DNA of 64,000 nucleotides from Escherichia coli (lineage in GTDB: Bacteria; Pseudomonadota; Gammaproteobacteria; Enterobacterales; Enterobacteriaceae): NCBI RefSeq assembly GCF_036507355.1, contig NZ_AP027877.1. One strand, given 5' to 3'. A program made the position numbers and the translations under genes. Below the pieces are notes generated by a model that was not told the DNA's origin, searched no databases, and saw only the letters and a program-made list of their open reading frames with translations. This document shows, one piece after another, positions 4,658 through 26,660 of this stretch; position 1 is the first letter of the stretch; each line of letters starts with the position of its first letter.

Positions 4658-4736
4658 GCCCACAAATTTGAAGTAGCTCACACTTATACACTTAAGGCAC
4701 GGATGGATATTGCTTCTGATATTGTCCGGTCGGACA

Positions 4737-4765
4737 ATGTTACCGATAACAGTTACCCGTAACAT
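4737..4765 (+). promoter_or_regulatory. GntR operator pair in the gntKU promoter (atgttaccgataacagttacccgtaacat)
   Basis: Overlapping ATGTTAC...GTAACAT palindromes just upstream of gntK. Confidence 0.7.
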
Positions 4766-4795
4766 TTTTAATTCTTGTATTGTGGGGGCACCACT

Positions 4796-5323
4796 TTGAG
4801 CACGACTAACCATGATCACCACATTTACGTCTTGATGGGCGTATCGGGCAGCGGCAAATCTGCGGTCGCCAGTGAAGTGGCGCATCAACTTCATGCCGCG
4901 TTTCTTGATGGCGATTTCCTCCATCCACGGCGCAATATCGAAAAAATGGCGTCTGGCGAACCACTGAATGACGACGATCGCAAACCGTGGTTGCAGGCGC
5001 TGAACGACGCCGCGTTTGCTATGCAGCGCACTAATAAAGTGTCGCTGATCGTCTGTTCTGCATTGAAAAAACACTATCGCGACTTGCTGCGTGAAGGTAA
5101 TCCGAATCTCTCTTTCATCTACCTGAAAGGCGATTTTGATGTGATTGAAAGCCGCCTGAAAGCGCGCAAAGGCCATTTCTTTAAAACCCAAATGTTGGTA
5201 ACGCAGTTTGAAACGCTGCAGGAGCCGGGTGCGGACGAAACCGATGTACTGGTGGTAGATATCGATCAACCGCTGGAAGGTGTTGTGGCAAGCACCATTG
5301 AGGTTATTAAAAAAGGCAAATAA
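4796..5323 (+). CDS. gntK: Gluconokinase (thermoresistant); TTG start
   Basis: Matches the remembered GntK MSTTNHDHHIYVLMGVSGSGKS...; P-loop; TTG at 4796. Confidence 0.85.
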   Translation: MSTTNHDHHIYVLMGVSGSGKSAVASEVAHQLHAAFLDGDFLHPRRNIEKMASGEPLNDDDRKPWLQALNDAAFAMQRTNKVSLIVCSALKKHYRDLLREGNPNLSFIYLKGDFDVIESRLKARKGHFFKTQMLVTQFETLQEPGADETDVLVVDIDQPLEGVVASTIEVIKKGK

Positions 5324-5326
5324 GTA

Positions 5327-6667
5327 GTGACTACATTAACGCTTGTTTTAACAGCAGTAGGGTCTGTTTTACTGCTGCTGTTTTTAGTCATGAAGGCGCG
5401 TATGCACGCTTTCCTGGCTTTGATGGTGGTGTCCATGGGGGCTGGCCTTTTTTCTGGTATGCCGCTCGATAAAATCGCAGCGACGATGGAAAAAGGGATG
5501 GGAGGCACCCTCGGCTTCCTGGCGGTGGTTGTCGCCCTGGGAGCCATGTTTGGCAAGATCTTACATGAAACCGGCGCAGTCGATCAGATTGCCGTCAAAA
5601 TGCTCAAATCCTTCGGTCACAGCCGCGCGCATTATGCCATCGGCCTTGCGGGGCTGGTCTGTGCGCTACCGCTGTTCTTTGAAGTGGCGATTGTTCTGCT
5701 GATTAGCGTTGCTTTCTCAATGGCGCGCCACACCGGTACGAACCTGGTGAAGCTGGTAATCCCATTATTCGCAGGCGTGGCGGCAGCGGCGGCGTTCCTG
5801 GTGCCAGGGCCAGCGCCAATGCTGCTGGCATCGCAGATGAACGCCGATTTTGGCTGGATGATCCTGATTGGCCTGTGTGCGGCAATTCCGGGAATGATTA
5901 TTGCCGGGCCGCTGTGGGGTAACTTCATCAGCCGTTACGTTGAGCTGCATATTCCTGACGACATCAGCGAGCCGCATCTCGGCGAAGGCAAAATGCCGTC
6001 CTTCGGATTCAGCCTGTCGCTGATCCTGCTGCCGCTGGTGCTGGTGGGGCTGAAAACCATTGCCGCGCGTTTTGTGCCGGAAGGCTCTACCGCTTACGAA
6101 TGGTTCGAGTTTATTGGTCATCCGTTTACCGCGATTCTGGTTGCTTGTCTGGTAGCGATTTATGGCCTGGCAATGCGTCAGGGCATGCCAAAAGACAAAG
6201 TGATGGAGATTTGCGGTCACGCGCTGCAACCGGCGGGGATCATTCTGCTGGTGATTGGTGCGGGCGGCGTGTTCAAACAGGTGCTGGTTGACTCTGGCGT
6301 AGGTCCGGCACTGGGCGAAGCGTTAACCGGCATGGGCCTGCCGATTGCTATCACCTGCTTCGTGCTGGCCGCTGCAGTGCGCATCATTCAGGGGTCTGCC
6401 ACCGTTGCCTGTTTAACGGCGGTGGGGCTGGTGATGCCGGTCATTGAACAACTGAACTATTCCGGTGCGCAAATGGCGGCGCTGTCGATTTGTATCGCCG
6501 GTGGTTCAATTGTTGTCAGCCACGTTAACGATGCCGGTTTCTGGTTGTTCGGTAAATTTACCGGCGCGACCGAAGCCGAAACGCTGAAAACCTGGACCAT
6601 GATGGAAACCATCCTCGGCACTGTCGGTGCCATCGTTGGGATGATTGCGTTCCAGCTGTTGAGTTAA
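5327..6667 (+). CDS. gntU: Low-affinity gluconate:H+ symporter (GntP family)
   Basis: 446-aa polytopic ORF immediately after gntK. Confidence 0.9.
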   Translation: MTTLTLVLTAVGSVLLLLFLVMKARMHAFLALMVVSMGAGLFSGMPLDKIAATMEKGMGGTLGFLAVVVALGAMFGKILHETGAVDQIAVKMLKSFGHSRAHYAIGLAGLVCALPLFFEVAIVLLISVAFSMARHTGTNLVKLVIPLFAGVAAAAAFLVPGPAPMLLASQMNADFGWMILIGLCAAIPGMIIAGPLWGNFISRYVELHIPDDISEPHLGEGKMPSFGFSLSLILLPLVLVGLKTIAARFVPEGSTAYEWFEFIGHPFTAILVACLVAIYGLAMRQGMPKDKVMEICGHALQPAGIILLVIGAGGVFKQVLVDSGVGPALGEALTGMGLPIAITCFVLAAAVRIIQGSATVACLTAVGLVMPVIEQLNYSGAQMAALSICIAGGSIVVSHVNDAGFWLFGKFTGATEAETLKTWTMMETILGTVGAIVGMIAFQLLS

Positions 6668-6723: not shown

Positions 6724-7317
6724 TTACCCCTTCATCCACATTCGAATGCCGTCGAGGAACATCTGGGTTGCCATCATCACCAGAATCAATCCCATCAGGC
6801 GTTCAAGTGCGTTCACCCCTTTCTCGCCCAGCAGACGTAAAAATAGCGAAGACTGTAGCAGGATGACAAAGGTGCCGCCCCAGGCCAGCAGCAGAGCAAT
6901 CACCAGATGTCCCATCTGATTCGGGTACTGATGAGACAACAACATCAGCGTGGCGAGAATAGTTGGCCCGGCGACCAGCGGAATTGCCAGCGGCACGATA
7001 AATGGCTCTTCACCTGCCGGAAGCCCGCTGCTATTTCCTGAAGCGCTGGGGAAAATCATCTTAATGGCAATTAGAAACAGAATGATGCCGCCAGAAATGG
7101 AGACGGTTTCTGCTCGTAGGCTGAGAAATGCCAGAATTTTCTCACCCGCAAACAGGAACACCAGCATCACCAGGAGAGCAATAAGCAACTCTCGCACCAT
7201 GATTGCCCGCCGTCTTTTCGGTTCAGTATGTTTCAGTACGGACATGAAAATAGGTAGGTTTCCGAGCGGATCCATAATCAGGATCAATAAAACTGCTGCA
7301 GAAATGATTTCATTCAT
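6724..7317 (-). CDS. yhgN: MarC-family (UPF0056) inner membrane protein
   Basis: 197-aa hydrophobic ORF; synteny. Confidence 0.85.
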   Translation of the reverse strand: MNEIISAAVLLILIMDPLGNLPIFMSVLKHTEPKRRRAIMVRELLIALLVMLVFLFAGEKILAFLSLRAETVSISGGIILFLIAIKMIFPSASGNSSGLPAGEEPFIVPLAIPLVAGPTILATLMLLSHQYPNQMGHLVIALLLAWGGTFVILLQSSLFLRLLGEKGVNALERLMGLILVMMATQMFLDGIRMWMKG

Positions 7318-22599: not shown

Positions 22600-22825
22600 A
22601 AAAAGAACAAATGGTAGTGTCCGCTATTGCCAGTACACCTCACAGCTTGGTTTTGCGTTGGGATATTATTGCCAGTGGCGCAGCAAAAATAGATGCCAGA
22701 TACGGAAGTGGAGTGAGTGGGGAACGTGCTTAAGTTTTGTTACGTTGGGTATGATGGCGTGGGCTTTGCGGTAATTCCCTGAATCAAAAAGTAGGTCAGA
22801 TTGTTGACAACGTGGCACTTTGTTC

Positions 22826-22862
22826 ATGCCTGATGCGGCGTGAATGCCTTCTCAGGCCTACA
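22826..22862. repeat. REP element (gcctgatgcggcgtgaatgccttctcaggcctac)
   Basis: Matches the REP consensus pattern GCCTGATGCGRCG...GGCCTAC; downstream of glpD. Confidence 0.7.
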
Positions 22863-22895
22863 AAATCATGCAAATTCAATATATTGCATAAACCA

Positions 22896-22928
22896 CGTAG
22901 GCCTGATAAGCGTAGCGCATCAGGCAAT
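22896..22928. repeat. REP element, inverted relative to the preceding copy (BIME-like pair)
   Basis: gtaggcctgataagcgtagcgcatcaggc. Confidence 0.7.
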
Positions 22929-22988
22929 TTTGTGTTTGTCATCAGTCTCAGGCCAGATTGAAATCTGACCTGATCACCTTACGTTAAT

Positions 22989-24494
22989 TTACGACGCCAG
23001 CGACAACTTCTGCTGCGTATACTCCACCAGCCACTGACTCACACGAGATTGTTGATCCGCATTCAGCCACATGCCTTGTTTTGTGCGACGCCACAGGGCA
23101 TCGTCGGCGCGGCGGACCCATTCGTGATCCACCAGGTATTTCAGCTCCGCTTCGTAGAACTCATGACCGAAATCTTCCCCGAGATCGCTTACCGTCCCCG
23201 CATTGCCGAGCAGCAACTCGCTGTTGCTGCCGTAAGTGCGCGCGTAGTGACGTGCCAGCGATTCGGTCAGGAACGGGTAGCGGCGGCGCAGGCGGGCGGC
23301 ATAATCGTCGCGGTCGCCTTCAATGGCACCACCCGGCAGCACGCTCTCTTTCGTCCATGCCGGGCCAATGCCCTGATAATACGGCGTTAGTTTTTCCAGC
23401 GCGTGCTCCGCCAGTTTGCGGTAGGTGGTCAGCTTACCGCCGAATACCGACAGCAGCGGTGCTTTGCCGTTTTCATCATGGATATCAAGGGTGTAATCAC
23501 GGGTAATGGCCTGCGGCGAGTCGGACTCATCATCACACAGCGGACGCACACCGGAGTAAGTCCAGACGATATCGTCACGGCTTAACTGCTTTTTAAAGTG
23601 CGCGTTATACACTTTCAGCAGGTAATTGATTTCACTCTCTTCAATCTTCACCGCTTTCGGATCGCCTTTGTATTCCACATCGGTGGTGCCGATGATGGAA
23701 AACTCATCCATCCACGGGATCACGAACACAATGCGTTTATCTTCGTTTTGCAGAATGTAGGCTTGCTTCTGGGTATGCACACGCGGCACCACAATATGGC
23801 TGCCTTTGATCAGGCGAATGCCATAAGGCGAAGGCAGATGCATGCCGTCGTCGAAGAACTGTTTCACCCACGGGCCGGTAGCATTCACCAGGCCGCGCGC
23901 CTGCCAGCGGTATTTTTTGCCGGTGTCGATATCTTCCGCTTCCACAATCCACAAGCCGTTTTCGCGGCGAGCAGAGGTGGCGCGAGTGCGGGTAAGCACT
24001 TCGCCGCCTTTACGCACCACCATCTGAGCGTTGGCGAGTACCAGACGGGCGTCGTCTACCCAACAGTCGGAATATTCGAATCCGCGCTTGATTTCCGGTT
24101 TTAACACTGAGTTTGCGCCAAAACGCAAGCCGGTTGATCCCGGCAGGCTGGTGCGTTTACCCAGATGATCGTACATAAACAGACCAATCCGAATCATCCA
24201 CGCCGGGCGCAGATGCGGACGATGTGGCAGGCGAAAACGCATCGGGAAGGCGATATGCGGGGCCATTTTCAGCAGCACTTCACGTTCAGCCAGCGCCTCG
24301 CTGACCAGGCGGAATTCATAGTGCTCAAGGTAGCGCAGGCCACCGTGAATGAGTTTTGAACTAGCGGAAGAGGTCGCGCAAGCGAGATCCTGCGCCTCCA
24401 GCATCAGCACGGATAAACCGCGTCCAGCGGCGTCTGCCGCGATACCAGCACCATTGATGCCGCCCCCTATCACAATCAGATCTTTGGTTTCCAT
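22989..24494 (-). CDS. glpD: Aerobic glycerol-3-phosphate dehydrogenase
   Basis: Matches GlpD METKDLIVIGGGINGAG...; FAD-binding motif; 501 aa from the internal Met. Confidence 0.95.
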   Translation of the reverse strand: METKDLIVIGGGINGAGIAADAAGRGLSVLMLEAQDLACATSSASSKLIHGGLRYLEHYEFRLVSEALAEREVLLKMAPHIAFPMRFRLPHRPHLRPAWMIRIGLFMYDHLGKRTSLPGSTGLRFGANSVLKPEIKRGFEYSDCWVDDARLVLANAQMVVRKGGEVLTRTRATSARRENGLWIVEAEDIDTGKKYRWQARGLVNATGPWVKQFFDDGMHLPSPYGIRLIKGSHIVVPRVHTQKQAYILQNEDKRIVFVIPWMDEFSIIGTTDVEYKGDPKAVKIEESEINYLLKVYNAHFKKQLSRDDIVWTYSGVRPLCDDESDSPQAITRDYTLDIHDENGKAPLLSVFGGKLTTYRKLAEHALEKLTPYYQGIGPAWTKESVLPGGAIEGDRDDYAARLRRRYPFLTESLARHYARTYGSNSELLLGNAGTVSDLGEDFGHEFYEAELKYLVDHEWVRRADDALWRRTKQGMWLNADQQSRVSQWLVEYTQQKLSLAS

Positions 24495-25901: not shown

Positions 25902-26660
25902 ATGAAACAAACACAACGTCACAACGGTATTATCGAACTGGTTAAACAGCAGGGTTATGTCAGTACCGAAGAGCTGGTAGAGCATTTCTCCGTCAGCCCG
26001 CAGACTATTCGCCGCGACCTCAATGAGCTGGCGGAGCAAAACCTGATCCTGCGCCATCACGGCGGTGCGGCGCTGCCTTCCAGTTCGGTTAACACGCCGT
26101 GGCACGATCGCAAGGCCACCCAGACCGAAGAAAAAGAGCGCATCGCCCGTAAAGTGGCGGAGCAAATCCCCAACGGCTCGACGCTGTTTATCGATATTGG
26201 CACCACGCCGGAAGCGGTGGCGCACGCGCTGCTTAATCACAGCAATTTGCGTATTGTCACCAACAATCTCAATGTTGCTAACACGTTGATGGTAAAAGAA
26301 GATTTCCGCATTATTCTCGCCGGTGGCGAATTACGCAGCCGCGATGGCGGGATCATTGGCGAAGCGACGCTCGATTTTATCTCCCAGTTCCGCCTTGATT
26401 TCGGCATTCTGGGGATAAGCGGCATCGATAGCGACGGCTCGCTGCTGGAGTTCGATTACCACGAAGTTCGCACCAAACGCGCCATTATTGAGAACTCGCG
26501 CCACGTTATGCTGGTGGTCGATCACTCGAAATTTGGCCGTAACGCGATGGTCAATATGGGCAGCATCAGCATGGTAGATGCCGTCTACACCGACGCCCCG
26601 CCGCCAGTAAGCGTGATGCAGGTGCTGACGGACCACCATATTCAACTGGAGCTGTGCTGA
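25902..26660 (+). CDS. glpR: DeoR-family glycerol-3-phosphate regulon repressor
   Basis: 252 aa from MKQTQRHNGIIELVKQQGYVSTEEL... Confidence 0.9.
   Translation: MKQTQRHNGIIELVKQQGYVSTEELVEHFSVSPQTIRRDLNELAEQNLILRHHGGAALPSSSVNTPWHDRKATQTEEKERIARKVAEQIPNGSTLFIDIGTTPEAVAHALLNHSNLRIVTNNLNVANTLMVKEDFRIILAGGELRSRDGGIIGEATLDFISQFRLDFGILGISGIDSDGSLLEFDYHEVRTKRAIIENSRHVMLVVDHSKFGRNAMVNMGSISMVDAVYTDAPPPVSVMQVLTDHHIQLELC

Follow-up and report, generated by a model that had tools for sequence, protein, structure and literature searches.

Comparative support for the annotated TTG start of gntK and GTG start of mrcA in an Escherichia coli chromosome segment

Gene content of the segment and its two start regions

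The stretch of DNA analysed here (64 kb, hereafter the window) is a segment of the E. coli chromosome that leads from yhhZ/yhhY through gntRKU, asd, the glg, glp, rtc, mal and feo genes, ompR-envZ and pck to mrcA/hofM, and it is oriented as the reverse complement of K-12 MG1655, where the corresponding interval lies at approximately 3.518-3.583 Mb. The K-12 RefSeq coding sequences of this interval (n = 54) were placed on the window by BLAST and 48 of them were located, plus glpR, which is intact in the window (25902-26660, plus strand, 252 aa) and annotated as a pseudogene in K-12 MG1655. The gntK region was matched in 5424 of 5426 complete E. coli genomes, with a best identity of 99.6%, and the mrcA region in 5425 complete genomes, in many of them at 100%. 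The features of the two start regions are listed in Table 1.

Table 1. Start codons, SD sites and flanking features of gntK, gntU and mrcA in the window
Feature	Position	Strand	Basis or remark
In-frame TAA upstream of gntK	4769..4771	+	Read from the sequence; 9 codons 5' of the start
Upstream in-frame TTG, first start-type codon of the gntK ORF; judged not to be the start	4775..4777	+	No SD; comparative data
gntK SD site, GGGGG	4784..4788	+	Spacer of 7 nt to TTG 4796
gntK initiation codon, TTG	4796..4798	+	K-12 RefSeq and PGAP annotation; conservation in 80 species
gntK CDS, thermoresistant gluconokinase, 175 aa plus stop	4796..5323	+	Match to PDB 1KNQ chain A; GNTK_ECOLI
Internal ATG, gntK codon 14, often mis-called as start of a 162-aa form	4835..4837	+	SD duplex +1.2 kcal/mol
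gntU initiation codon, GTG	5327..5329	+	Annotated start; 3 nt after the gntK stop (5321-5323)
mrcA CDS, 850 aa plus stop	61015..63567	-	ORF end; length match to K-12; PBPA_ECOLI
mrcA (PBP1A) initiation codon, GTG	63565..63567	-	K-12 RefSeq and PGAP annotation; conservation in Enterobacterales
Weak SD-like GGG(A) of mrcA	63577..63579	-	Spacer of 9 nt to GTG; -4.2 kcal/mol
Upstream in-frame ATG, start of the 858-aa mrcA ORF; judged not to be the start	63589..63591	-	No SD; codon not kept
In-frame TAA upstream of mrcA	63601..63603	-	Read from the sequence; 12 codons 5' of the start

On the plus strand, the 5' region of gntK reads ttg(4775) tat tgt ggg ggc acc act TTG(4796) agc acg act aac, and on the minus strand that of mrcA reads ATG(63591) aaa cta aat ggg aaa ttt cca GTG(63567) aag ttc gta aag. 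Taken mechanically from its first start-type codon, the gntK ORF spans 4775..5323 (182 aa, TTG) and extends seven codons beyond the annotated start, and the mrcA ORF spans 61015..63591 (858 aa, ATG) and extends eight codons beyond it. A preliminary description of the window had placed the starts at TTG 4796 and GTG 63565-63567 and had stated that the six-frame ORFs over-extend both genes, and annotation, SD strength and cross-species comparison all agree with this placement. The K-12 RefSeq genes gntK (b3437, NP_417894.2, 528 nt, TTG start) and mrcA (b3396, NP_417855.4, 2553 nt, GTG start) map exactly to positions 4796 and 63567, respectively, and the first 150 nt of each gene are identical between the window and K-12. 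The window comes from another E. coli strain and its gntK does not differ in substance from the K-12 gene (GNTK_ECOLI; same TTG, 175 aa), just as K-12 mrcA/ponA (PBPA_ECOLI) has the same GTG, the same length of 850 aa and an identical start region; MrcA of the window shows a few internal residue differences from K-12 that have no bearing on the start. PGAP called the TTG of gntK and the GTG of mrcA alike in GDSC2227PM, 2017C-4109, ECN24 and YP3, and the UniProt reference names GNTK_ECOLI and PBPA_ECOLI stand on the 175-aa and 850-aa forms.

Several observations concern other parts of the window. Between 18370 and 22700 it carries two genes for PstS-family phosphate-binding proteins (18382-19887 and 19850-20905), an ORF of 158 aa and an IS3-family transposase (21781-22599); the K-12 counterpart of this region holds only yzgL, a 93-aa remnant, and no complete E. 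coli genome covered positions 18250-23000 at 80% or more. In E. coli GDSC2227PM, genes for a RecQ-family helicase and a DprA-like protein are inserted between gntU and yhgN (L001, 7208-10506); the window lacks an insertion of this type, with gntU ending at 6667 and yhgN at 6724-7317. Rfam searches at the gathering threshold matched the sRNAs RyhB (1400-1464, 83 bits) and ES036/CssrF (22862-22904, 43.6 bits) in the window and no RNA element at the start of gntK or mrcA.

Conservation and SD sites at the gntK and mrcA starts

For gntK, we compared loci from 80 species-representative Enterobacteriaceae genomes, a set that takes in Escherichia, Salmonella, Citrobacter, Klebsiella, Raoultella, Enterobacter, Kosakonia, Leclercia, Kluyvera and Buttiauxella. 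The codon at residue 1 was TTG in 77 of the 80 species (96%) and ATG in three (Yokenella, Trabulsiella and Buttiauxella), and a CTN codon or TTA was found in none. Synonymous sites in the alignment were well mixed, and at every one of the 18 internal leucines of gntK, two to nine different codons, mainly CTG, occurred across the same species. Since the codon at residue 1 is never exchanged for another leucine codon while the internal leucine codons mix, this position is constrained as an initiator and not as a leucine. When the alignment was anchored at the start, column entropy upstream of the TTG averaged 1.3-1.6 bits without any three-base periodicity, the exceptions being the SD core with an invariant G at -10 and an invariant C at -2, and from codon 2 onwards it was 0.15, 0.08 and 0.60 bits at codon positions 1, 2 and 3, respectively. 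Coding-type conservation thus sets in exactly at codon 2 of the 175-aa form, as an abrupt switch from non-coding to coding sequence.

The SD data point to the same codon. The preliminary description had named SD analysis as a check on both starts, and it favours the annotated codon in each case: the duplex with the 3' end of 16S rRNA reaches -8.4 kcal/mol at TTG 4796 against +0.6 kcal/mol, that is, no SD, at TTG 4775, and -4.2 kcal/mol at the GTG of mrcA against +1.2 or +1.5 kcal/mol at ATG 63591, the value varying with the length of upstream sequence that was scored. An SD was found upstream of gntK in 80/80 species, with energies of -6 to -12 kcal/mol. Within E. coli, the 50 nt over the SD, the TTG and the following 12 codons were identical in 5388 of 5424 records, and the one variant that we inspected carried a change in the spacer with the TTG intact. 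The 175-aa protein aligned with chain A of PDB entry 1KNQ (gluconate kinase) over residues 1-175 of 175 with zero differences (E = 1e-115). Taken together, gntK would be translated from UUG 4796, with the GGGGG SD and its 7-nt spacer in front of it.

Upstream of the gntK SD, we noted a candidate CRP-like site, TTTGAagtagcTCACA (4667-4682, plus strand), and two overlapping palindromes, ATGTTACCGATAACAG and CAGTTACCCGTAACAT (4737-4765, plus strand), which are putative GntR operators by their resemblance to the consensus; the GTTACCCGTAACA core of these palindromes was retained in most of the 80 species. We also considered a hairpin in the gntK leader that would sequester the SD and act as a translational brake (GUGG/CCAC in E. 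coli, AGGG/CCCU in Enterobacter). This candidate was dropped because the leader folds no better than its shuffled versions (median z of +0.2 for 42 distinct leaders) and the register of pairing differs between genera. The promoter scan of the gntK region returned one minus-strand match within the end of gntR, unrelated to gntK, and that of the mrcA region one weak minus-strand match over the start of hofM, at chance level; the scans of both regions placed no transcription start that would exclude the upstream start codons. The supplements of the TRAINSPOTTER, tetracycline-profiling and ribosome-signature papers contain no entry for gntK, mrcA or gntU.

For mrcA, eight further loci were taken from Salmonella, Raoultella, Serratia, an Edwardsiella MAG, a Mixta-like sequencing-run assembly and three metagenome contigs, and together with the window the start codon was GTG in 9/9 Enterobacterales loci. 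In addition, metagenome contigs were scanned with a degenerate pattern for MrcA residues 2-14 that left the start codon and the leader free, which yielded 120 contigs with 61 distinct start regions, all 61 of them with GTG. Across these roughly 70 distinct Enterobacterales sequences the start is GTG without exception (70/70), and the adjoining nucleotides are nearly invariant too. A ATGGGAAA-like motif in front of the GTG was retained in most Enterobacterales sequences, and in E. coli 56 nt including the ATG, the SD and the GTG were identical in 5425 of 5426 records. Since the whole neighbourhood is near-invariant, including the synonymous sites of codons 2-5 and approximately 36 nt of leader, the invariance of the GTG by itself weighs less than that of the TTG in gntK. 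As far as sequence comparison can tell, the argument for this start rests on the decay of the upstream reading frame, set out below, and on the N-termini of homologues. Homologues of MrcA residues 1-189 from Vibrio, Shewanella, Haemophilus, Pseudoalteromonas and others have their first residue where the GTG lies in E. coli; their N-terminus reads M-K-[FWIL]-[VIL]-K, a membrane anchor comes next, and behind this anchor they carry the PF00912 transglycosylase domain (GT51). Translation of mrcA, which encodes the cell-wall synthase PBP1A (penicillin-binding protein 1A, class A), would accordingly begin at GUG 63567 on the minus strand, preceded by the weak SD-like GGGA.

Three further observations were made around this start. 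The 36 nt upstream of the leader ATG, tttatactaccgcgcgtttgtttataaactgcccaa (63592-63627, minus strand), were near-invariant in the 61 distinct Enterobacterales sequences and the nine loci, a degree of conservation far above that of typical intergenic DNA; this stretch gave no Rfam match and no convincing sigma-70 consensus, and probably serves as a promoter or leader element. In E. coli YP3 (L214), an in-frame 3-nt deletion at the equivalent of window positions 63556-63558 removes mrcA codon 4 (Val), a change found in 1 of 5426 records, with the PGAP start unchanged at the GTG. Just after the start, mrcA codons 6-8 contain a T6 run (63547-63552), and several public MrcA-like calls (P0009, P0010, P0033-P0035 and P0049) enter the gene from another frame upstream (MISLSPVTL... 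or MRLACLYTT...EVRKVFLILAV). Such calls are expected if the T6 run is one base shorter, and they may reflect homopolymer assembly errors or real frameshift variants.

Overall, we consider it very probable that TTG 4796 of gntK and GTG 63567 of mrcA are the genuine, already annotated translation starts of two housekeeping genes and that the upstream TTG 4775 and ATG 63591 are chance codons.

Upstream and internal start-type codons

We weighed three other assignments of these N-termini. The first concerns mrcA only and keeps the GTG as the main start in E. coli and Salmonella, with ATG 63591 giving rise to a minor 858-aa isoform. This ATG is in frame, occurs unchanged in 5425 of 5426 E. coli records and is common to Salmonella and some relatives, and as a start codon ATG is inherently stronger than GTG. 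However, it has no SD and is lost in most other genera: in other Enterobacterales loci ATA, ACG or CTG stands in its place, or the ATG is out of frame. The SD and leader sequence that overlap the stretch can account for its conservation, and no pattern is conserved among the eight extra residues apart from the N-G-K that the SD encodes. Dual initiation of mrcA is therefore, in our judgement, quite unlikely, and initiation at the GTG remains the preferred reading.

The second assignment takes the longest ORFs as the real genes, with GntK starting at TTG 4775 (182 aa) and PBP1A at ATG 63591 (858 aa). Both codons are in frame with no stop between them and the annotated starts, the mrcA codon is fixed within E. 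coli and also present in Salmonella, and public records of both long proteins exist (182-aa GntK on 25 contigs, 858-aa MrcA on 232). Against this, neither codon has an SD, and both curated and PGAP annotation use the shorter forms. For gntK, no in-frame start codon occurs upstream of the conserved TTG before a stop is reached in 36 of the 80 species, so that a longer GntK cannot exist in those species; moreover, the spacing between the last GTAACA operator half-site and the gntK start is spread over all three frames (40, 23 and 17 species), and the upstream sequence lacks the coding periodicity described above. For mrcA, codon -8 in the 61 distinct sequences was a start-type codon in 28 (ATG in 11, GTG in 10 and TTG in seven) and in the remaining 33 either a stop or a codon of non-start type, and in-frame stops interrupt the leader at -1, -6 or -8 in several lineages; the Mixta-like and Serratia loci also carry in-frame stops. 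Judged by these comparisons, the long forms of both proteins are contradicted, and we give them hardly any credence compared with the annotated starts.

The third assignment, a GntK of 162 aa that starts at the first ATG (4835, codon 14) and leaves the TTG as an ordinary leucine codon or as non-coding sequence, is a very frequent public gene call that includes the original MG1655 'ORF_f162', and it would employ the generally preferred start codon, but it is barely tenable given that codons 2-13 (STTNHDHHI/V YVL) keep their protein sequence across the 80 species while third positions change synonymously, that ATG 4835 has no SD, that the solved structure (PDB 1KNQ) uses residues 1-175, and that, going by the P-loop kinase fold, a start at M14 would probably remove the strand that leads into the Walker A loop GVSGSGKS.

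The remaining genes of the window place the upstream codons in a wider context. An upstream extension of the ORF was present in 20 of the 49 window genes; about 50% would be expected because there are three start-type and three stop codons, so the count of extended ORFs is at chance level. In 20/20 window genes with alternative upstream starts, the strongest SD among the candidates belonged to the annotated start. The preliminary description had listed asd, glpD, glpR, rtcR, gntX/yhgH, feoB, greB, ompR, pck, hslO and yrfG as extended genes, and each of these 11 does have at least one in-frame ATG, GTG or TTG between its annotated ATG and the nearest stop upstream; the list missed seven more, namely yhhY, glgC, the yzgL-like gene, glpE, rtcA, feoC and hofM. 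TTG 4775 and ATG 63591 would accordingly be chance start-type codons in untranslated leaders, and codons of this kind lead the longest-ORF rule to over-extend about half of all genes.

Start-codon use in public records and in the gluconate operon

Both start codons are already known, as the K-12 reference annotation records them and current NCBI pipelines reproduce them. To see how they fare in public records, we looked up the protein forms by exact sequence among approximately 15 billion public proteins. Among the matches listed, the correct 175-aa GntK was found on at least 1000 contigs, the 162-aa form on 998, the extended 182-aa form on 25 and a 163-aa form on one; the correct 850-aa MrcA was found on at least 1000 contigs and the extended 858-aa form on 232, and the latter was also frequent among Salmonella records. 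The main public error in gntK is therefore truncation to the internal ATG, not extension, and presumably stems from gene callers that penalise TTG. The expectation in the preliminary description that automatic annotation would mis-call both N-termini is thus borne out for MrcA by the 858-aa records and does not extend to PGAP, which had both starts right in every genome inspected; for gntK, the extension that it foresaw occurs on the few contigs given above, and the frequent error is the opposite one.

The relevance of these observations goes little beyond annotation hygiene, and they illustrate how start-site errors linger in public protein collections: the truncated 162-aa GntK is approximately as common as the correct form among the matches listed, and the 858-aa PBP1A sits on hundreds of contigs. 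A cross-species test settles such starts without experiments: it asks whether species keep the start codon and never replace it by a synonymous one, and whether coding periodicity sets in from codon 2.

Initiator fMet-tRNA reads near-cognate codons through a first-position mismatch, so that the protein still begins with formyl-methionine, and at UUG and GUG starts the SD positions the 30S subunit. Compared with AUG, such codons initiate less efficiently and are more liable to proofreading by IF3. The starts of gntK and mrcA would be cases of this ordinary non-AUG initiation: like bacterial GUG and UUG starts in general they have a near-cognate codon behind an SD, and we found no special feature in either of them. 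In reporter assays, GUG and UUG initiate at roughly 10-100% of the efficiency of AUG, and 83% of E. coli genes start with AUG, 14% with GUG and 3% with UUG (bioRxiv 10.1101/063800). Measured against this average of 17% non-ATG starts, approximately eight would be expected among the 49 window genes and three were observed (gntK, mrcA and gntU), and an enrichment of non-ATG starts in the window was thus rejected. The conservation of the gntK and mrcA start codons themselves lies far above the chance level. The preliminary description had named the first two of these three and had overlooked the GTG of gntU.

The start of gntU also avoids ATG across the family, with GTG in 61, TTG in 19 and ATG in none of the 80 Enterobacteriaceae species. 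In most of them it overlaps the gntK stop (TAGTG or GTGA) or lies within a few bases of it, and this arrangement suggests that translation of gntU, from a conserved weak start, is coupled to that of gntK. Within gntU codons ~9-20, we observed a terminator-like hairpin of 11 pairs, CAGCAGTAGGG/TTTTACTGCTG, followed by a T-run (5352-5387, plus strand); in this region a T5 run was kept in 76 of the 80 species and the median folding energy was -16.4 kcal/mol. We assume that this hairpin may be the one described as a partial terminator between gntK and gntU.

A well-known case of a conserved sub-optimal start is infC, whose AUU start is read by IF3 and whose autoregulation through this weak codon has been demonstrated experimentally. 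The likeness to gntK lies in the conservation of such a codon (TTG in 77/80 species), which suggests selection on codon identity; the difference is that the UUG and GUG of gntK, gntU and mrcA are canonical alternatives, which AUU is not, and that, of these four genes, infC is the one for which a regulator is known to act through the start codon. The small new point of our comparison is that gntK and gntU alike avoid ATG starts throughout the family, which hints at selection for weak initiation, and the weak codons would then presumably serve to hold expression low. As a tentative proposal, which we think possible but do not favour, selection and not inertia may preserve the weak starts of the gluconate operon, and these starts, together with the gntU hairpin, may form a layered device that caps the output of the kinase and the low-affinity transporter, perhaps making their translation respond to IF3 or growth state. 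Should the weak starts of gntK and gntU indeed be under selection, this would be a small addition to what is understood of expression tuning in the gluconate system.
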